Shown in pieces: positions 17,935 to 35,301 of a stretch of DNA of 64,000 bases; position 1 is the stretch's first letter; every line of letters begins with the position of its first letter. The DNA is taken from NCBI GenBank assembly GCA_913058395.1, contig CAJXQI010000002.1, forward strand, positions 1 through 64,000, given 5' to 3'. Under the pieces are notes generated by a model that did not search any database, had not been told where the DNA came from, and saw nothing but the letters and a program-made list of their open reading frames with translations. The DNA comes from an uncultured Colwellia sp. Lineage in GTDB: Bacteria; Pseudomonadota; Gammaproteobacteria; Enterobacterales; Alteromonadaceae. A program made the position numbers and the translations under genes.

Positions 17935-19125
17935 ATGGGCAAATCCGTCCAAAAAATTACTGAAAACGTTAGCCTCATTGCATCTACTGATACGTGGATT
18001 GAAGGGCTAGCGATACAGCAACTGATTAAAACATCAGAATTAAGTGGTATGCACAGCGTTGCTGGCATGCCTGATTTGCACCCAGGGAGAGGTTATCCCA
18101 TCGGTGCTGCATTTTTTACAACTAACAAAATTTACCCTGCGCTTGTAGGGAATGATATTGGCTGTGGCATGTCACTTTGGCAAACCTCAGCAAAAGTATC
18201 CAAAGTTAACTTAGATAAACTGGCTAAGAAGTTTGAGCATGTAGAGCAGCCTTTAGATGAAAGCTGGTCTGAAATTATTGAAAACCGAAAGACTGATAAA
18301 GGTATAACAACCGATAGCTATGATCGTGCTCTAGGCACCATTGGTGGCGGTAATCACTTTGCAGAATTTCAGGCCATCGATGAGGTGTATGACCAAATTG
18401 CGTTAGATGAGTTAGGGCTTAATAAAAAGCATTTACAGCTTCTTGTTCACTCAGGCTCTAGAGGTTTAGGTCAATCAATCTTGGTTGATCATATAACTAA
18501 GCATAACCACGATGGCTTAAACCTTGATGATAACGACTTTCAAGATTACATGGCCAAACATGATGAAGCGGTTCGTTGGGCTGAGCTAAATCGTGAACTG
18601 ATTGCCAAACGCTTTTTAGAAGCAATTAGAGCGAATGGTGACTGCGCATTAGACATTAACCACAACTTGGTTTCGTCAAAAAACATTGATGGTTGTGATG
18701 GCTGGCTACACCGCAAAGGCGCAACACCAAGTGATAAAGGTTATGTGGTTATACCTGGTTCACGCGGTGATTATAGCTATTTGGTGAAACCCATTACCTT
18801 GAATGAAAAGCTTAGTAATAGTGAAACTAGCGAAAACTTAAATACGAGCCTGTTTTCTTTAGCGCATGGCGCAGGTAGAAAGTGGAAACGTGGCGAGTGT
18901 CATGGCCGTCTAGGGCATAAATATAATCGTGAAGACTTATATCGCACCGCACTCGGTAGTCGAGTGGTTTGTGGCAATAAAGAGCTTTTGTATGATGAAG
19001 CACCGCAAGCTTATAAGAAATGTGAAACCGTTATCAGCGATATGGTTGATGCGGGGTTAATTGAGGTTATAGCTAAGCTACGTCCGGTATTAACCTTTAA
19101 AACAAATGGAGATTGTTCATCATGA
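17935..19125 (+). CDS. rtcB: RtcB-family RNA ligase, release-factor-H-coupled paralogue (RtcB2)
   Basis: [17 protein letters not shown] and GGGNHF metal-binding motifs; translationally coupled to prfH. Confidence 0.9.
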
Positions 19126-19763
19126 TATTACTACAACTGTCAGCAGGCCAAGGTCCTGTTGAGTGTTGCAAAGCTGTTGGTTTGGCGCTGAAAACAATTG
19201 AAAAACAATGTCGAGAGAAAGGAATAAAGCTCGATATTGTTGAAACCATTGCTTCCAAAGAGCGAGATTGTTTTAAGTCAGCTTTGCTGCAACTTGATTC
19301 AAAAAAGGCTGAGTCTGGAAAGGAAAGTTCAGCTAAGCAATTAGCCGAGTCATGGCAAGGAGCTATGTTATGGGTATGTCAAAGCCAATATAGGCCAAAA
19401 CATAAACGTAAAAACTGGTTCTTCAGTGTCCAAATGTATGAGGTCAATGATACCCAATTGGATAAAGGGGTAACATTTCAAGCATGCCGTGCTTCTGGTG
19501 CAGGCGGACAACATGTAAATACAACGGACTCGGCAGTTCGAGCTACTCATACTGAAACAGGTATTTCAGTACGTGTTGAAAGTGAGCGCAGCCAACATGC
19601 TAATAAGCGGTTATCGAGAGTATTGTTATTCCAGAAGTTGGAAGCAAAAAAACTTGAGCAAATGACACAACAAGAAAAAGCCCGTTGGCAACAGCACTGG
19701 GAAGTTGAACGTGGTAACCCAGTGAAAACATTTAAGGGTGTAAAGTTCACCCTGTCTTCATAG
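19122..19763 (+). CDS. prfH: peptide chain release factor homologue PrfH
   Basis: [17 protein letters not shown]-terminus as in E. coli PrfH; GGQ motif ([16 protein letters not shown]); start overlaps the rtcB2 stop. Confidence 0.9.
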
Positions 19764-19771
19764 GTGAATAT

Positions 19772-20125
19772 ATGTTGATACGAGTATCACCACAGGAGAA
19801 AAAGGTTCGTGATTATGTGAACCAGACTAAGAACTGTTACGGTGAAAATAATAAGAGTTCTAGAAAATCAATTCGATATCGAAAGGTAGCGGTAAATAGA
19901 AGTTACCGTAGAAATGCTCATAATATTTTAAACGTTGGTTACGTAGACATTGAAACCATAGAGGTAAGTTTATCGGCCCAATCAAGAAGTGATTGGCAAA
20001 AGTTTGCTGACGAATCTCTAATAGAGCACATGTCAGACTATAACCGAAACAGCTTAAAAGGTGAGCTTCAAAAAGAAGCCATTAAACGTATAAAGAAAAG
20101 TAATAAAAACACAGATCTAAACTGA
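19772..20125 (+). CDS. hypothetical basic protein (117 aa, Lys/Arg-rich), part of the rtcB2-prfH transcription unit
   Basis: ORF starts 9 nt after the prfH stop; high K/R content suggests nucleic-acid binding. Confidence 0.4.
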   Translation: MLIRVSPQEKKVRDYVNQTKNCYGENNKSSRKSIRYRKVAVNRSYRRNAHNILNVGYVDIETIEVSLSAQSRSDWQKFADESLIEHMSDYNRNSLKGELQKEAIKRIKKSNKNTDLN

Positions 20126-20378
20126 TATTACTTAATTGACAGAAAATGTCTTAAAAAGATCATTGCACTATTATTATTTAATAATTCCGTAGGAGGCAGA
20201 TATGTATTCCATTGAAAAAACATCGACTCAGAAAACTCGCCACTTGGTTGTTGAGTATTAGTTACTTCTAAAAGTTTCAACTCTCGATCAAGGGCTTATT
20301 TAAGCTTTTTATCAGCATCAGAAATTGCTAGGCCAACTTATTACTTGGTTATTAGTGGTTTTTGGTGTGGAGAGATCG

Positions 20379-20768
20379 ATGAATACATCAAAAAATATAT
20401 TGGAATGTTGTGCTTCGTTATGCGAAGGCGATGGCATTTCACCACGTCATGAAAAAAACAAAGAGAATTCTGTTGTTCATGACAATAGACGGCTGTGCCG
20501 TCAGGTTCAAAAACTTGTCCGTTTAGCCATTACTGAACTTGGTTTAGATGGATGGGATATCGTAAGTGTTAAACAAAAACAGGGGAAAACTACCTTAATC
20601 TTAACTATAGCGCCAACAGAGAATGCATCATTTTCAGACTGTGAATCGGCTTTGGAGTGGCTGAGGAGCCATCAAAATGAAATAAGGTTTATTGTTGCAA
20701 ATGGTATAAACAGAAAATCAGTTCCTGCACTGCACTTTGGGCTAGTAGCGGAGGCTGATTATGAATAA
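20379..20768 (+). CDS. RbfA-like (ribosome-binding factor A fold) protein, translationally coupled to RtcB3
   Basis: RRLCRQVQKLVRLAITELG...IVSVK...TTLILTI...RKSVPALHF aligns by eye with E. coli RbfA (RVAQEMQKEIALILQREI...TVSGVEMSRD...AKVYVTF...RLRIVPELTF); 8-nt overlap with rtcB3. Confidence 0.45.
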   Translation: MNTSKNILECCASLCEGDGISPRHEKNKENSVVHDNRRLCRQVQKLVRLAITELGLDGWDIVSVKQKQGKTTLILTIAPTENASFSDCESALEWLRSHQNEIRFIVANGINRKSVPALHFGLVAEADYE

Positions 20769-21882
20769 ATCAAAAGCAAGTTATCGCCATTGGTTAAGTG
20801 AAAAGCTTAGTCCTGAATTAGATCAACAAACTAAACGTTTACTGCATGCAAAAGGTGTGAAGCATGTGAGATTAATGGCTGATGCACATCTAGCCAACGA
20901 TGTTTGTGTTGGTTGTGTTTTGGCAACTGAAAAGCTGATATATCCGGCTGCAATTGGTGGTGATATTGGGTGTGGCATGTTATCGGTGCCACTAGATATT
21001 GATGCAAACTTTATTCAAAGCCAGCAGGCTGAGTTAATTTTTAAAAACTTAACTCATATGGTTCCCATAATGAAGCAATCTCAAGGTATTTCCTTTGAGT
21101 TAGATAAAAAATTATCTAATGAAAGGTTGCAACATATCGCCTTACGAGATGGATGTTATCAATTAGGCACGTTGGGCCGAGGTAATCATTTTCTGGAGTT
21201 GCAACGATGTGTTGAGACAGGACAATTATGGTTAATGATACATACTGGGTCTCGCGGTATGGGGCCTGCAATTCGAGACTATCATTTACATCATGCCTCT
21301 GGAAAATCAGGTGGCCTTAAATACTTGGATATTGATAGTGAACAAGGAAAGGCTTACTACAACGACCTTGGGTGGGCAAGAGAATATGCCAATGCAAACA
21401 GACTGCAAATTTTAGAACGATGTAGAGCACTATTTAGTGACTTATTCTCAGTCTCGGTTGATGAAAACAGGATGATTCATTGTGATCACAACCACCTTGA
21501 TATGGCGACTCTAAATAAACAAGATCTACTAATTCACCGCAAAGGAGCATGCTCGGTAACGAAAGGAGAAACAGCAATAATTCCCGGAAGTATGGGAAGT
21601 GACAGCTTTCATGTTATTGGAAAAGGAAATGCTGATTCGCTGTTTTCTAGTTCTCATGGCGCTGGTCGATGTATGAGCAGACAACTAGCTAGGAAAACTA
21701 TCACAAGTAATAATTTGAGCAAACAACTTTCAGGTATTTACTACCAACAAGAGAAATTACGTTTGCTGACTGAAGAAGCCCCAACCAGTTACAAGAATAT
21801 TGAAAAGGTAATGTCGTTACAGAAAAAGTTAGTCAAAGTGACTAGGCGATTAAGTCCTGTTTTAAGTTACAAAGGCACTTAA
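20761..21882 (+). CDS. rtcB: RtcB-family RNA ligase, third paralogue (RtcB3, 373 aa)
   Basis: GGDIGCGM, GRGNHFLE and HTGSRG motifs. Confidence 0.85.
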   Translation: MNKSKASYRHWLSEKLSPELDQQTKRLLHAKGVKHVRLMADAHLANDVCVGCVLATEKLIYPAAIGGDIGCGMLSVPLDIDANFIQSQQAELIFKNLTHMVPIMKQSQGISFELDKKLSNERLQHIALRDGCYQLGTLGRGNHFLELQRCVETGQLWLMIHTGSRGMGPAIRDYHLHHASGKSGGLKYLDIDSEQGKAYYNDLGWAREYANANRLQILERCRALFSDLFSVSVDENRMIHCDHNHLDMATLNKQDLLIHRKGACSVTKGETAIIPGSMGSDSFHVIGKGNADSLFSSSHGAGRCMSRQLARKTITSNNLSKQLSGIYYQQEKLRLLTEEAPTSYKNIEKVMSLQKKLVKVTRRLSPVLSYKGT

Positions 21883-21889
21883 ACCGTAT

Positions 21890-21925
21890 TGAAGTAGGCT
21901 AGAAATACTAGCCTACTTTTTTATA
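21890..21925. terminator. rho-independent terminator (AGTAGGCTAG..CTAGCCTACT followed by TTTTTT)
   Basis: Perfect 10-bp stem followed by a T-run. Confidence 0.6.
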
Positions 21926-22749
21926 GTAATGACTTTTTTTCTCCGCTTTAATTTTAGGTCGTACTTTTTAAGTTTTTTGCCTGTAGAAGAAATAGTGATG
22001 TACCCTTGAAGCTCACATACGTCATGAGCACTATCATCAGTTGAAGACAAAATATCAGCAGTAGCATATATAGATGCTGTATTTTTAGTGGTGAAGTCTA
22101 ATTTTTTCAGTTCAATTCCGTCACACCAAAGATCCCTAGTTTCAGGGTTAATTGAAAGGTAATTACCTAAAAACCATTCAATATCCGATGGTAAAAATCC
22201 AAGACTAGAATCAGCTAAGCCTTCTTTAATAACGTAAAGCCCTGCGGCTACTTTTCTTTCATGACGTCTTGCATTGTTTTTTAATATGCGTTTGCAAGTA
22301 AATCTACGTTGTAAATTTTTTGAGCAATACATAAAGAATTCTACGTTGGGATCAGGCTCTAAAGTAGCTTCACGAACAATTTCATTCTCTAAAATTACCT
22401 CTAATTTAAGCTCAGAAACTTTGTATTCTTTATAACTATTATATTCACTATCTAATGTTGCTTTTGGTAATAGACCAACAAGACTTTCTTCCGATAACCC
22501 AATAAGCGACTCATCATAAATACAAAAGTCACTGGATGTGATTTTTATACGATCGAGTCTAAATTCATAGAATGAATCGAATTCAAGCTTTAAACCTAGT
22601 TTGTCATAACACCAAACTTCAGGCATGCAATCATCTTCTTTAGCATTCTGGTTTTTTATTTGTTCTGGTATACCAATAATTGATTGAACTTCCGCTCGAT
22701 TCATACCGAAAGTAATATTGCCAATACCGAATAAAGGACTAATTTTCAT
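21913..22749 (-). CDS. hypothetical protein (278 aa) within the RNA-repair cluster
   Basis: ORF only; lysine-rich C-terminus. Confidence 0.45.
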   Translation of the reverse strand: MKISPLFGIGNITFGMNRAEVQSIIGIPEQIKNQNAKEDDCMPEVWCYDKLGLKLEFDSFYEFRLDRIKITSSDFCIYDESLIGLSEESLVGLLPKATLDSEYNSYKEYKVSELKLEVILENEIVREATLEPDPNVEFFMYCSKNLQRRFTCKRILKNNARRHERKVAAGLYVIKEGLADSSLGFLPSDIEWFLGNYLSINPETRDLWCDGIELKKLDFTTKNTASIYATADILSSTDDSAHDVCELQGYITISSTGKKLKKYDLKLKRRKKVITIKK

Positions 22750-23478: not shown

Positions 23479-23961
23479 CTACAATCCTATACGTTCCATT
23501 TCTGCCATTGATTTAAGATTCATTTTTTCCAGCTTTTCATAATTTTTATTTTTTGAAAATATAGGTGTGATGTACCCGTCTTCATGACTATAAGTCATGC
23601 ACCATGCGAAATTTTTAGGAAATATATGAACTTCATTCCCATGACAGTTTTTAATAGGCTTGGTTCTTGACACGTAAATTACCTTTTCATTTTCACCAAA
23701 GTTGTCTTCCATAATGTAGTAGCTAGGTGCTGCATGACGTTCATACTTTTCCTGTGCTTCTTCTTGAAAGAAATCTCCAGTCATATTCTCCCACAAAGTG
23801 TTCATACAGTACTTTAAGCCTCGAAAAGAAGTAATTGAAGGGCAAAAAATAGTGAGCCACTTTTGCCCAATGATTAGCGCTTTATCATCTTCAATGGATT
23901 CGTATTTTTGAATAGATAAATCTTTAATTACTTTGGGTGTTTTCATAGCTATTTCTTCCAA
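23479..23961 (-). CDS. hypothetical protein (160 aa)
   Basis: ORF only. Confidence 0.4.
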   Translation of the reverse strand: MEEIAMKTPKVIKDLSIQKYESIEDDKALIIGQKWLTIFCPSITSFRGLKYCMNTLWENMTGDFFQEEAQEKYERHAAPSYYIMEDNFGENEKVIYVSRTKPIKNCHGNEVHIFPKNFAWCMTYSHEDGYITPIFSKNKNYEKLEKMNLKSMAEMERIGL

Positions 23962-27240: not shown

Positions 27241-28464
27241 TTAACCTTTAACGCATACTATCTGTTTCAAGGTGTATACTACTTCAACAAGATCCTTTTG
27301 TGCTTCCATCACCTTTTCAATATCTTTGTATGCGTGCGGTATTTCATCAATTACTGAGGCATCCTTTCTACACTCCACACCTTCTGTCGCTGCAATTTGA
27401 TCATCAACGTTATAGACCTTTTTTGCCTTTGTTCTAGACATTACTCTACCTGCACCGTGACTACAGCTATTGAAACTTTCAGGATTTCCTAAACCTCTTA
27501 CAATAAATGATTTAGCCCCCATACTGCCGGGAATAATGCCCATTTCACCTTTTTCAGCACGAACTGCGCCTTTTCTTGTGACATAACAATCCTTACCAAA
27601 GTGATGCTCACGCGAGATATAGTTATGATGACAATTTACTGCTAAATCAGCCGTTGAAAACTCAATAGGTAATTGCTTTCTTAGAGCGGCAATAGCATTG
27701 AACATCATTATTTCACGATTCTTTAAAGCAAAGTCTTGTGCCCACTCAACAGCTTCAACATAATCATCAAAATAGTCACTTCCTTCTTCAAGGTAAGCCA
27801 AGTCCATATCTGGCAAATTAATTTGATGACGTTGCATTTCTTTTTTCGCTAACTCGATAAAGTAAGTACCAATTCTATTCCCAACTCCACGACTACCTGA
27901 ATGCAACATGATCCAAACCGCATCATTTTCATCTAGGCAAAGCTCTAAGAAATGATTTCCAGTACCCATAGTACCTAAATGCTTCACATTATTACTTTTT
28001 TTAATGGCTGGATGTTTTTCACAAATCCGTTCAAATCTCGCCTGTAACTTCAACCACTCACCCGCAACTACATCAGGTACGTTATGCCAAGAACCTCTAT
28101 CTGCTCGGCCTCTACCACTAGTTCGTCCATGTGGGACAGCAGCTTCAAAAGCATGTCTTATCGCAGATAAATTATCTGGCAACTGACTGGCTGTTAATGT
28201 TGTTTTGGTAGCGACCATACCACAACCAATATCTACACCAACTGCTGCTGGAATTACTGCTTCCACTGATGGGATAACACTTCCAATAGTCGCACCTTTA
28301 CCTAGATGTACATCAGGCATTACCGCGATATGTGAATGAACCAATGGCATAGTCGCAATGTTATTTAGCTGTTGCTGAGCTTGCTCTTCAAATGGAACAC
28401 CTTTAGTCCATGCTTTGATTGTCGCTCTTCCTTCATTTTCAATAACGTTATAATTTCTACACAT
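27241..28464 (-). CDS. rtcB: RtcB RNA ligase (canonical, 407 aa)
   Basis: MPDVHLGKG, GVDIGCGM and GTGNHFLE motifs. Confidence 0.9.
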   Translation of the reverse strand: MCRNYNVIENEGRATIKAWTKGVPFEEQAQQQLNNIATMPLVHSHIAVMPDVHLGKGATIGSVIPSVEAVIPAAVGVDIGCGMVATKTTLTASQLPDNLSAIRHAFEAAVPHGRTSGRGRADRGSWHNVPDVVAGEWLKLQARFERICEKHPAIKKSNNVKHLGTMGTGNHFLELCLDENDAVWIMLHSGSRGVGNRIGTYFIELAKKEMQRHQINLPDMDLAYLEEGSDYFDDYVEAVEWAQDFALKNREIMMFNAIAALRKQLPIEFSTADLAVNCHHNYISREHHFGKDCYVTRKGAVRAEKGEMGIIPGSMGAKSFIVRGLGNPESFNSCSHGAGRVMSRTKAKKVYNVDDQIAATEGVECRKDASVIDEIPHAYKDIEKVMEAQKDLVEVVYTLKQIVCVKG

Positions 28465-29816: not shown

Positions 29817-29888
29817 GTACTTATTAGTTCTTGGCGTTTATCAAACATTGGTACTAACTACTTACTAACGTTTCATTACATATCATCG

Positions 29889-29959
29889 TATAAAGGGTGG
29901 GAATTGAACCCACAACAAACGGGTTAAAGCCGCTGCTCTACCAATTGAGCTACCTGTAT
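29889..29959 (-). ncRNA. tRNA-like element 1 (71 nt, no CCA, acceptor mismatch, anticodon loop reads UUA if 7-nt)
   Basis: Folds by eye: acceptor ATACAGG/CCTTTAT (1 mismatch), D-arm GCTC-AATTGGTA-GAGC, T-arm GTGGG-TTCAATT-CCCAC; conserved U8 A9 G18G19 TTC. Confidence 0.5.
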
Positions 29960-30027
29960 TTAAGGAAGGATTCGAACCTTCGCCCAACAGCACGAAGCTG
30001 TTGCTCTATCCTCTGAGCTACTTAAAT
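29957..30027 (-). ncRNA. tRNA-like element 2 (71 nt, no CCA, 5-nt anticodon loop or 4-bp stem with anticodon UCG)
   Basis: Perfect acceptor ATTTAAG/CTTAAAT, D-arm GCTC-AGAGGATA-GAGC, anticodon arm ACAGC-TTCGT-GCTGT, T-arm GAAGG-TTCGAAT-CCTTC. Confidence 0.5.
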
Positions 30028-30029
30028 AG

Positions 30030-30100
30030 TTATTAAGATGGGAATCGAACCCATGACTGACGAAATCAATTCGCTGCTCTACCTACTGAGCTACTTAATA
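30030..30100 (-). ncRNA. tRNA-like element 3 (71 nt, no CCA, shortened anticodon loop)
   Basis: Perfect acceptor TATTAAG/CTTAATA, D-arm GCTC-AGTAGGTA-GAGC, anticodon arm GCGAA-TTGAT-TTCGT, T-arm ATGGG-TTCGATT-CCCAT. Confidence 0.5.
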
Positions 30101-30356
30101 TTTGTTTGATTAGGTATACGCATTTGCATTGCTTAGCGCACCAGTGTGACTTTTTGAATCACATCCTATTAATCAGACACTTAAGTTATTACAAGTCATG
30201 TGCCAAGATAATTTAAACCGTAAAAAAAATAATTAACCTGTTGTTTATATATGAGAAATTATGTGTTGCCGTGTGTTTTATATGTTTTAAGTTGAATTAA
30301 AAACCACTAGTAGATATCATTAAGGATATTTAATCTATCTATATGGATATGCTGTA

Positions 30357-33644: not shown

Positions 33645-35219
33645 ATGAAACTAGCAAGATATCGTAGAGTTAGCTCTAAAAGACAAGTAAATGAAGGTGA
33701 GTCTCTGGCTGGGCAAATTCAAAAAACGGACGAATGGGCAAAGGCAAATGGACATCAAATTATTGAAGATTACGTTGATGCAGGTTTTACAGGTCGTAAT
33801 GAAAATAGGAAAGGCTATCAGAATTTATTAGCTGATGTAGCAGAACCAGGGTCAGAAATAGAGGCTGTAATTGTTTATGCTCTCAATAGGATAAGTAGGG
33901 ATTTATTAATATTACTAAAAGGAGTCGAACATTTAGAAAAACATAATGTTCAATTATTTTCTGTGATTGAAAATCTTCCTAAAGATAGAAGCACTAATCG
34001 ATTGATGTTGGCTGTAACTGGTGCTGTATCGCAGAATCAAAGTGATGTTAGCTCTGTTTTTGTTAAAGACCGTATGAATGAAACTGCTGAACAAGGTTTT
34101 TACACAGGAGGACGTATTCCATACGGTTATTCAACCATCAAAGTTAAAATAGAAGGAATAAAAAAGAAACGTTCGAGACTTGTGATCATTGAAGAGCAAG
34201 CGTCTCTAGTTCGAGACATTTTCAATGCCGTTATAAGAGGTAGTAGTGGAAAAGGAGACGGATTAAAAACAATAGCAACTGATTTAAATAAGCGTGGCCT
34301 TAAACATGGAGTTAATAACTGGACCATAACAACATTAGGAAGAATGTTACATGATTCAACATATATGGGTGTACGGGTTTTTGGAAAAAATAGAAAAGAG
34401 GCTGAAAACAAACCAATAAAGAGTAAATGCCCTTCTATTGTATCAGAATCAATATTTAAACAGGCACAGAAAGCATTAAAGAGCAGACAACTTACTAACA
34501 GAGCATGTAAAGGAGTACGTTCTAACAGCCTTTTAACAGGGCTGCTTAAATGCTCTTGTTGCAACTCAAATTTAGTTATTAATACTGGCAAGAGTGGGCA
34601 ATACAAATATTACAAATGCAGTAAAAAAATAAAGGCCAACATTAATATATGTAATCAAAAGCCAATACCACAGTTATTAATTGAAAATAAAATTATGGAT
34701 GTGATATCTGATACGATACTGGAAACAGAATATCTAAATAAAATTTCAGAACATGTAAAAAAGATTCTTAAAGGTAAAGCTAAAAGTGATGATCAAATTC
34801 GGCTTTCTAAAAACAATCAATTAGCAGAAACCAAACAAAGTCTCAAAAAACTATTCATGATGCTCAGTAAAGATGAAATCGCTGCCGATAAAGATCTAGA
34901 TGAGATTTTAGATGACTTAAAAAATAAACGAAATACTCTTGAAGAAGAGTTACAGATTATAAAGCGCAGATCCAGTATTCCAATTTGGAAATTTGGTGAT
35001 AAGAAGAAATTAATATTTATAGAGACAATTAAAAAAGTTCTACTATCTGGTGATAAGAGTTTAACTAAGGCATTTTTGAGAACGATAATATCTAAAATTG
35101 ACGTTAAACCAACTGAAGTAACAATCATTGGAAGTAATATTCAAATGTTAAATGCCATTTCTAAAACAAAAATGGGCACCTCTAATGAGGTGCCCACCTT
35201 CGTATCAATGTGGCGGTGA
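33645..35219 (+). CDS. large serine recombinase (integrase): resolvase catalytic domain, recombinase domain, zinc ribbon, coiled coil
   Basis: YRRVSSKRQ...GESLAGQ catalytic Ser region; recombinase-domain motifs; CSCCNSNL..YKCSKK zinc ribbon; 524 aa; 3' end overlaps the tRNA-Ser 3' end. Confidence 0.9.
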   Translation: MKLARYRRVSSKRQVNEGESLAGQIQKTDEWAKANGHQIIEDYVDAGFTGRNENRKGYQNLLADVAEPGSEIEAVIVYALNRISRDLLILLKGVEHLEKHNVQLFSVIENLPKDRSTNRLMLAVTGAVSQNQSDVSSVFVKDRMNETAEQGFYTGGRIPYGYSTIKVKIEGIKKKRSRLVIIEEQASLVRDIFNAVIRGSSGKGDGLKTIATDLNKRGLKHGVNNWTITTLGRMLHDSTYMGVRVFGKNRKEAENKPIKSKCPSIVSESIFKQAQKALKSRQLTNRACKGVRSNSLLTGLLKCSCCNSNLVINTGKSGQYKYYKCSKKIKANINICNQKPIPQLLIENKIMDVISDTILETEYLNKISEHVKKILKGKAKSDDQIRLSKNNQLAETKQSLKKLFMMLSKDEIAADKDLDEILDDLKNKRNTLEEELQIIKRRSSIPIWKFGDKKKLIFIETIKKVLLSGDKSLTKAFLRTIISKIDVKPTEVTIIGSNIQMLNAISKTKMGTSNEVPTFVSMWR

Positions 35220-35301
35220 GATAGAGATTTGAACTCTAGAAGGGCTACAAACCCTTGCCGGTTTTCAAGACCGGTGCTTTCGACCACTCAGCCATCTCAC
35301 C
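35211..35301 (-). tRNA. tRNA-Ser (anticodon UGA), class II with long variable arm, CCA encoded
   Basis: Folded by eye: acceptor GGTGAGA/TCTCACC, discriminator G, CCA; anticodon stem CCGGT/ACCGG, loop CTTGAAA; T-arm TAGAG-TTCAAAT-CTCTA. Confidence 0.9.

Follow-up and report, generated by a model that had tools for sequence, protein, structure and literature searches.

A divergent RbfA paralogue translationally coupled to its own RtcB in an uncultured Colwellia: a candidate two-subunit RNA-repair ligase

The stretch of DNA analysed here (the window, 64,000 nucleotides of contig CAJXQI010000002.1 from an uncultured Colwellia sp.) carries on its plus strand, at positions 20379-21882, a gene for a small RbfA-like protein that is translationally coupled to the gene of a third RtcB paralogue, RtcB3. 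A divergent RbfA paralogue paired with an RtcB of its own, recurrent in marine gammaproteobacteria and in Planctomycetota, suggests an undescribed RNA-repair module, which probably serves ribosomal RNA. With moderate confidence, we propose that the pair encodes a two-subunit RNA-repair ligase, in which RtcB3 would be the catalyst and the RbfA paralogue the accessory subunit, docking the enzyme on its substrate.

The coding sequence of the RbfA paralogue extends over 20379-20768 (+), with the ATG at 20379 and the TAA stop codon at 20766-20768, and specifies 129 residues. The open reading frame described in an earlier note on this DNA is therefore real, and the length of 130 residues given there counts the stop codon. 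The start methionine is common to all 18 of the 18 close homologues, and a Shine-Dalgarno sequence (GGAGAG, 20369-20374, +, by direct reading) lies 4 nt 5' of the ATG. The rtcB3 gene (20761-21882, +) encodes an RtcB-family 3'-phosphate/5'-OH RNA ligase of 373 residues; its own Shine-Dalgarno sequence (GGAGG, 20750-20754, +, likewise read directly) is embedded in the rbfA-like coding sequence. The two frames overlap by 8 nt (ATGAATAA, 20761-20768, +), as the earlier note had it, with the rbfA-like stop codon lying within the start of rtcB3. The unit is closed by an intrinsic terminator (21891-21919, +; a 12-bp stem and then a run of T residues), on the far side of which the convergent rtcB1 operon ends. 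In the 253-nt gap 5' of the rbfA-like gene, a consensus scan gives a sigma-70-like promoter candidate (TTGACA-16-GATCAT, 20136-20163, +) with 10 of 12 consensus matches, which is weak, such sites being no commoner here than in shuffled sequence. The promoter scan found no sigma-54 (RtcR-type) promoter in the same gap.

The 129-residue protein is a real but divergent homologue of RbfA. The Pfam RBFA model aligns with residues 41-121 (E = 0.0064, 17.2 bits, below the 34.7-bit cutoff), whereas a profile-profile comparison of the family with E. coli RbfA in hhalign returns a probability of 95.6% and an E value of 1.2e-8, pairing residues 36-124 with residues 8-101 of RbfA. All 133 residues of the E. 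coli sequence used in this comparison align with PDB chain 7afl_V. A profile built from the close family retrieved no RbfA from the PDB sequences, and the link needed the profile-profile and the fold comparison. Among diverse members of the family, 38 of 43 match Pfam RBFA (best E = 6.3e-13); several exceed the threshold, and these are labelled RbfA by the Joint Genome Institute (JGI). Two AlphaFold models (predicted local distance difference test, pLDDT, of 76 and 82, with a core above 90) show the alpha-beta-beta-alpha-alpha-beta order of a type-II KH domain, with pLDDT values of 83-96 over residues 31-120. A Foldseek search with the model places 17 RbfA entries at the top ranks, with template modelling (TM) scores of up to 0.83, in agreement with the fold that the earlier note had put forward.

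That note had also aligned the protein with RbfA over its whole length, and here the homology stands while the extent does not. The RbfA-type type-II KH domain comprises residues ~36-124 (20484-20750, +), as delimited by Pfam, hhalign and pLDDT, and the first 35 residues (20379-20483, +) form a family-specific N-terminal extension outside the hhalign match, which begins at residue 36. The pLDDT of the extension is low (43-67) in both models. In comparison with E. coli RbfA, residues 1-35 are thus extra and the long C-terminal tail is missing.

An exhaustive profile search gave 499 clusters at 50% identity, with E values up to 1e-3. Among the 150 matches listed, lengths are mostly ~110-180 residues, and most align from residue ~5-11 on. 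NCBIfam holds no dedicated model for the family. The best-conserved positions in 151 aligned members fall into three regions. The first is the N-terminal extension (Cys11 in 130 members, Asp18 in 144, Gly19 in 136, Pro22 in 134 and Arg23 in 110), with the motif C-x6-DG-x2-PR followed by a Lys/Arg-rich linker that leads into helix 1 at Leu39-Cys40. The second is the start of helix 1 (Leu39 in 144, Cys40 in 136, Gln42 in 124). The third, alpha3 with the alpha3/beta3 loop, contains Arg103 (147), Ala107 (139), Arg112 (151), Pro116 (151), Leu118 (139) and Phe120 (137), together with Lys or Arg at position 113 in 149 of the 151; the alpha3/beta3 loop is the most conserved part of the family. The hhalign alignment pairs Arg103, Lys113 and Pro116 with R80, R90 and P93 of E. 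coli RbfA, and the basic alpha3 and alpha3/beta3 loop are retained. Possible roles of the N-terminal motif are the docking of RtcB, activation in the manner of archease, and a metal or redox function.

The product of rtcB3 matches Pfam RtcB (PF01139) with an E value of 2.6e-79 and 267.9 bits. It was correctly recognised in the earlier note as a third paralogue, since Pfam RtcB also matches at 17935-19125 (RtcB2) and at 27241-28464 on the minus strand (RtcB1). RtcB3 scores 144.5 bits against TIGR03073 (release_rtcB, the PrfH-linked family), where the cutoff is 271.8, and is also below the cutoff of NF007153. Judged by its residues, the active site of RtcB3 is intact, with the catalytic residues present: the positions that supply the metal ligands and the nucleophilic histidine (D68, C71, H143, H161, H243 and H299) are invariant in the three RtcB paralogues of the window and align to the corresponding motifs of P. 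horikoshii RtcB. RtcB3 and RtcB2 share ~30% identity. The RtcBs linked to RbfA-like proteins retain the catalytic residues and form one clade, with 42-68% identity to RtcB3 as against at most 35% to RtcB1, RtcB2 and the long RtcB.

The pairing recurs well beyond the window. In eight contexts with called genes (loci L001, from Aliikangiella, L002, L005, L007, L008, L010, L012 and L014), which encode RbfA-like proteins 19-61% identical to that of the window, an RtcB gene lies immediately 3' of the rbfA-like gene, as it does in the window, and the frames overlap by 1-20 nt in all eight. The partner RtcB has 373-382 residues in seven of them and is split into two pieces in L007. A genome scan with a hand-built degenerate DNA pattern derived from the family motifs gave at least 120 loci, nearly all from Planctomycetota, with a few from Myxococcota and other metagenome-assembled genomes (MAGs); the pattern favours G+C-rich genomes because it is biased to GAC codons. 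Among the 120 matches listed, RtcB is directly downstream in 59 and directly upstream in 4, no RtcB is found within ~4 kb in 49, and 6 are truncated at the end of the locus. One more (L080) is a frameshifted assembly, and one (L018), unclassified by the script, has an RtcB open reading frame overlapping the gene on the same strand. An adjacent RtcB is therefore present in 63 of the 114 non-truncated loci. A start codon permitting an overlap of 4, 8 or 11 nt occurs in 46 of 58 loci. The four loci with the reversed order, RtcB directly 5' of the rbfA-like gene (L116, L121, L123 and L129), belong to one small clade. No third gene common to the loci was found.

A neighbour-joining tree puts the majority of the 49 stand-alone genes into one clade (Gemmataceae, Isosphaeraceae, Singulisphaera). 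This clade branches within RtcB-linked lineages, and coupling therefore looks like the ancestral condition. Its members (e.g. L051, L087 and L090; Singulisphaera) retain the N-terminal motif, and their neighbouring genes are mutually unrelated. Nucleotide-level scans of the plasmid, phage and viral collections, and of E. coli genomes, did not find the pair, which is not evidently mobile. PADLOC gives no defence-system match.

Several single loci deserve mention. An apparent natural fusion of the two proteins at L080 (6168-7760, an open reading frame of 531 residues) was rejected, as the C-terminal half of RbfA is out of frame in this frameshifted long-read MAG. At L139 (6946-8675), in place of an overlap, ~1.1 kb separates the rbfA-like gene from the one RtcB3-like segment detected, a gap that may reflect an insertion or gene decay. 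In three loci only (L010, 7564-10391; L011, 1905-4729; L014, 6553-9377), the pair is followed by genes for a MoxR-like AAA+ ATPase and a DUF2201_N protein, which may represent an extended repair cassette in that lineage. In L010, genes for a ParE toxin and a Pnkp-ligase are also found near the pair.

The reading of the pair as a two-subunit enzyme rests on the conserved translational coupling and on the co-evolving clade of ligases. The RbfA paralogue would be the substrate-recognition or docking subunit of RtcB3, a role that is the best supported of those considered because the characterised RbfA relatives among the structure matches, bacterial and mitochondrial, all bind small-subunit rRNA. 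We propose that its KH domain attaches to the small ribosomal subunit, or to the 3' minor domain and neck region of 16S rRNA, the binding site of RbfA, and would hold the broken RNA ends; that the N-terminal extension, with its C-x6-DG-x2-PR motif and basic linker, may contact or activate RtcB3; and that RtcB3 would reseal a ribotoxin cut with 2',3'-cyclic-phosphate and 5'-OH ends. We infer here the formation of the complex, its binding to the 30S subunit or 16S rRNA, the type of lesion and the function of the N-terminal motif.

The nearest known system is RtcB2-PrfH (E. coli ATCC 25922; PMC9304027, PMC9223846, PMC13166195), in which a dedicated RtcB and a small paralogue of a translation factor are likewise encoded by overlapping genes. 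Its function is the repair of toxin-cut 16S rRNA, and the module also adjoins the pair in the window. The pair differs from it in that an RbfA (KH) paralogue replaces the release-factor paralogue, the accessory gene comes first, reversing the order, and the RtcB belongs to another clade. Colicin E3 and CdiA-CT cut 16S rRNA at A1493/G1494, and RtcB2-PrfH repairs that cut, for which RtcB2 is reported to be strictly specific (PMC9304027). The earlier note had described PrfH as delivering RtcB2 to the A site; the published model is sequential instead, with PrfH releasing the peptide, the damaged 70S ribosome then splitting, and RtcB2 repairing the free 30S subunit (PMC9304027). PrfH thus acts on stalled 70S ribosomes, in contrast to RbfA-type proteins, which bind free or immature 30S subunits. 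Since stalled 70S ribosomes with a colicin-E3-type cut are already served by the neighbouring RtcB2-PrfH, and RtcB2 is reported to be strictly specific, the pair would handle some other lesion or ribosomal state; its target is probably a different one, e.g. the free or immature 30S subunit, the h44/h45 linker, or the 3' tail.

Canonical RbfA sits in the mRNA exit channel, grips 16S residues G1530-A1536 and keeps the h44/h45 linker unfolded (PMC8177701). Its beta1/beta2 and alpha3/beta3 loops are wedged between h28 and the 16S 3' end; the highly conserved Phe78 stacks on A1534-C1535, and the AxG motif is also used (PMC8177701). Several observations support a link of the pair to the ribosome: the conserved alpha3/beta3 loop of the family is one of these two wedge loops, the 16S region gripped by RbfA is close to known ribotoxin cuts, and the gammaproteobacterial pair often stands beside rtcB2-prfH, a 16S repair module. 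With canonical RbfA (PF02033, TIGR00082) and mitochondrial RBFA, the window protein shares the type-II KH fold, the counterparts of R80, R90 and P93, and the alpha3/beta3 loop. It differs from canonical RbfA in its scores below the cutoffs, the N-terminal extension, the absence of the C-terminal tail, the loss of Phe78 and AxG, and the RtcB context. A precedent for a KH protein that presents the 3' end of small-subunit rRNA to an enzyme is Pno1-Nob1 of the eukaryotic pre-40S particle, and the parallel between RbfA and Pno1 was drawn in PMC8177701. The enzyme on the Nob1 side is an endonuclease of normal maturation rather than a ligase, and the proteins are not homologous partners of the pair.

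Several findings weigh against the proposal. Besides the sub-threshold Pfam score, the NCBIfam RbfA model (TIGR00082) gives only 14.4 bits for the window protein, where its cutoff is 142. At the position of Phe78, the window protein has Glu101, and the 151 members have an aromatic residue in 39 cases and a basic one in 59; the AxG motif reads H98-Q99-N100 and is present in 30 of the 151. As these two positions are not conserved, the mode of binding, or even the RNA bound, may differ from that of canonical RbfA, and an RNA from outside the ribosome is just as possible a ligand of the KH domain. One RtcB-linked member, P0185, is without the N-terminal Cys/DG motif, and ~43% of the loci among the matches listed, mostly from Planctomycetota, have no RtcB within ~4 kb. 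Targeting of 16S rRNA is plausible, and it is weakened by the loss of key RbfA residues.

The best-placed alternative, which we nevertheless regard as unlikely, is that the small protein acts on the chemistry of RtcB3 (guanylylation, turnover or nucleotide specificity) in the manner of an archease, and not on the choice of substrate, with its acidic N-terminal motif reaching the Mn2+/GTP site. Archease activates archaeal and human RtcB. It is an accessory protein of RtcB of comparably small size (established knowledge; cited in PMC10630183), and the archease-RtcB systems of archaea, eukaryotes and some bacteria resemble the pair in co-encoding a small protein with RtcB. The tight translational coupling, which implies stoichiometric production, would suit such a cofactor, as would the degenerate KH cleft motif (AxG, Phe78) and the location of part of the strongest conservation outside that cleft, in the N-terminal Cys/Asp-Gly/Pro-Arg motif. 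The fold, however, is that of RbfA and is unrelated to archease, and no Pfam match of the protein to archease (PF01951) is found at E values up to 1. The conserved basic alpha3/beta3 loop (R112, K113, P116) and R103 match the RNA-contacting region of RbfA, and P0185 is RtcB-linked while lacking the N-terminal motif. Archease accelerates catalysis and is not known for substrate targeting, but activation and targeting by the small protein are compatible, and both can hold.

Somewhat less probable still is an adaptor function outside the ribosome, in which the KH domain would now recognise a tRNA, an mRNA or some other small RNA, and RtcB3 would repair that RNA in place of 16S rRNA. The loss of the determinants that grip the 16S 3' end fits this possibility, as does the repair of tRNAs by canonical bacterial RtcB (PMC9304027), and the neighbouring RtcR-controlled operon contains tRNA-type enzymes (a CCA-adding-like nucleotidyltransferase, a SpoU methylase and RlaP) and tRNA-like elements. 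The pair, however, is transcribed apart from that operon, which is convergent and separated by the terminator, and the pair has no sigma-54 promoter of its own. Moreover, its recurrent neighbour is the 16S repair module rtcB2-prfH, and binding of small-subunit rRNA by the characterised relatives, mentioned above, also speaks for the ribosome.

We consider it improbable that the family acts mainly in normal 30S maturation, perhaps as the housekeeping RbfA of Planctomycetota, with RtcB acting on 16S precursor ends. Canonical RbfA does hold the 16S 3' end in late maturation (PMC8177701). The family tree largely tracks taxonomy within Planctomycetota, suggesting long vertical inheritance; nearly half of the loci among the matches listed, mostly from Planctomycetota, are stand-alone; and several members both pass the Pfam RBFA threshold and carry the name RbfA at JGI. 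Against this explanation, we know of no step in bacterial rRNA maturation that needs a 3'-phosphate/5'-OH ligase. A gammaproteobacterial host is expected to have its canonical rbfA in the infB operon (nusA-infB-rbfA-truB); the window copy, in contrast to this usual context, is in an RNA-repair cluster and lies between prfH with the adjoining 117-residue open reading frame and rtcB3. Neither infB nor truB was found beside the rbfA-like gene in the contexts read. Finally, that the small open reading frame is unrelated or non-functional and merely happens to lie 5' of rtcB3 is scarcely credible: the sub-threshold Pfam score alone speaks for it, against a pair kept in the window, in the eight gene-called contexts and in 63 genome loci (among the matches listed), the hosts including gammaproteobacteria and Planctomycetota, with a conserved stop/start overlap and partner RtcBs that form a co-varying clade.

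The pair is located inside a cluster of RNA-repair genes of ~14 kb (17.9-32 kb). Upstream of it, as context and not as part of the pair, is the rtcB2-prfH module (+). The rtcB2 gene (17935-19125) matches Pfam RtcB with an E value of 2e-70 and NCBIfam release_rtcB with 525 bits, and prfH (19113-19763) matches NCBIfam release_prfH with 257 bits, both NCBIfam scores being above the cutoff. Among gammaproteobacteria, the pair and rtcB2-prfH occur together in three arrangements: in the order of the window (L136, L138 and L140), divergently (L001, Aliikangiella), and 4 kb apart (L002). In L005, the pair is found without rtcB2-prfH nearby. Between prfH and the rbfA-like gene lies an open reading frame of 117 residues (19772-20125, +) with no family match; it recurs at the same position, with 85-87% amino acid identity, in the L136 and L140 metagenome contigs. 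Most likely it is a genuine gene and part of the rtcB2-prfH unit.

On the other side of the pair, rtcB1 (27241-28464, -; Pfam RtcB, E = 1.3e-128) adjoins RtcA and is part of a long operon that also encodes a Band-7 protein, a CCA-adding-like nucleotidyltransferase with an HD domain, RlaP and a SpoU methylase, with RtcR divergent. Two open reading frames within the rtcB1/rtcA/RlaP/SpoU operon, at 21913-22749 (-, 278 residues) and 23479-23961 (-, 160 residues), have no Pfam or PADLOC match. Three tandem tRNA-like elements of 72 nt (29888-30100, -) are placed between rtcR and the band7-rtcB1-rtcA operon. ARAGORN reads them as tRNA-Stop(tta), tRNA-Arg(tcg) and tRNA-Ser(tga), the last of which lacks the long variable arm; in Rfam, two of them score ~61 bits as tRNA, with weak matches to YrlA (Y-RNA-like). 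A sigma-54-like promoter (TGGCAC-N5-TTGT, 30190-30205, -) is present just 5' of these elements, which recall yrlA/yrlB of Salmonella and look like tRNA-type leaders or decoys belonging to the RtcR-controlled operon. Farther along (33645-35301), the gene of a large serine recombinase, whose domains are Resolvase, Recombinase and Zn-ribbon, runs up to a tRNA-Ser(tga) gene (35211-35301). An island inserted at this tRNA gene may carry the RNA-repair cluster.

In general, the association of RtcB with an accessory factor is already known, and the pair is a variant of it with an RbfA-type partner and its own RtcB clade. The earlier note was not aware of any description of an RbfA-RtcB pairing, and we likewise found nothing relevant in a full-text literature search, in recent RtcB reviews or in the PrfH papers, an earlier mention elsewhere being possible. 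No link to the RbfA-like pair could be made for the 'third RtcB' of ~60 E. coli strains in PMC9304027. The RbfA-like family is unannotated and has a distinctive motif; its members are labelled in databases as hypothetical proteins or, loosely, as RbfA.

Several RtcB paralogues per bacterium are common, and the physiological substrate is known for two types only. MazF removes the 16S 3' terminus, and canonical RtcB can rejoin the fragment (PMC5416887). Together with tRNA, MazF-cut 16S rRNA is thus the known substrate of canonical RtcB, and colicin-E3-cut 16S rRNA is that of RtcB2 with PrfH. The coupling of a third RtcB clade to a paralogue of a 30S assembly factor offers a concrete, testable substrate hypothesis. 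More tentatively, the pair may constitute a second, PrfH-independent pathway of ribosome repair, widespread in Planctomycetota and marine gammaproteobacteria, in which the RbfA paralogue would dock on damaged or free 30S subunits, hold the 16S 3' minor domain and present the break to its own RtcB, with the N-terminal Cys/Asp-Gly/Pro-Arg motif docking or activating the ligase. If true, this would extend the recruitment of translation-factor paralogues as specificity subunits of RNA repair.

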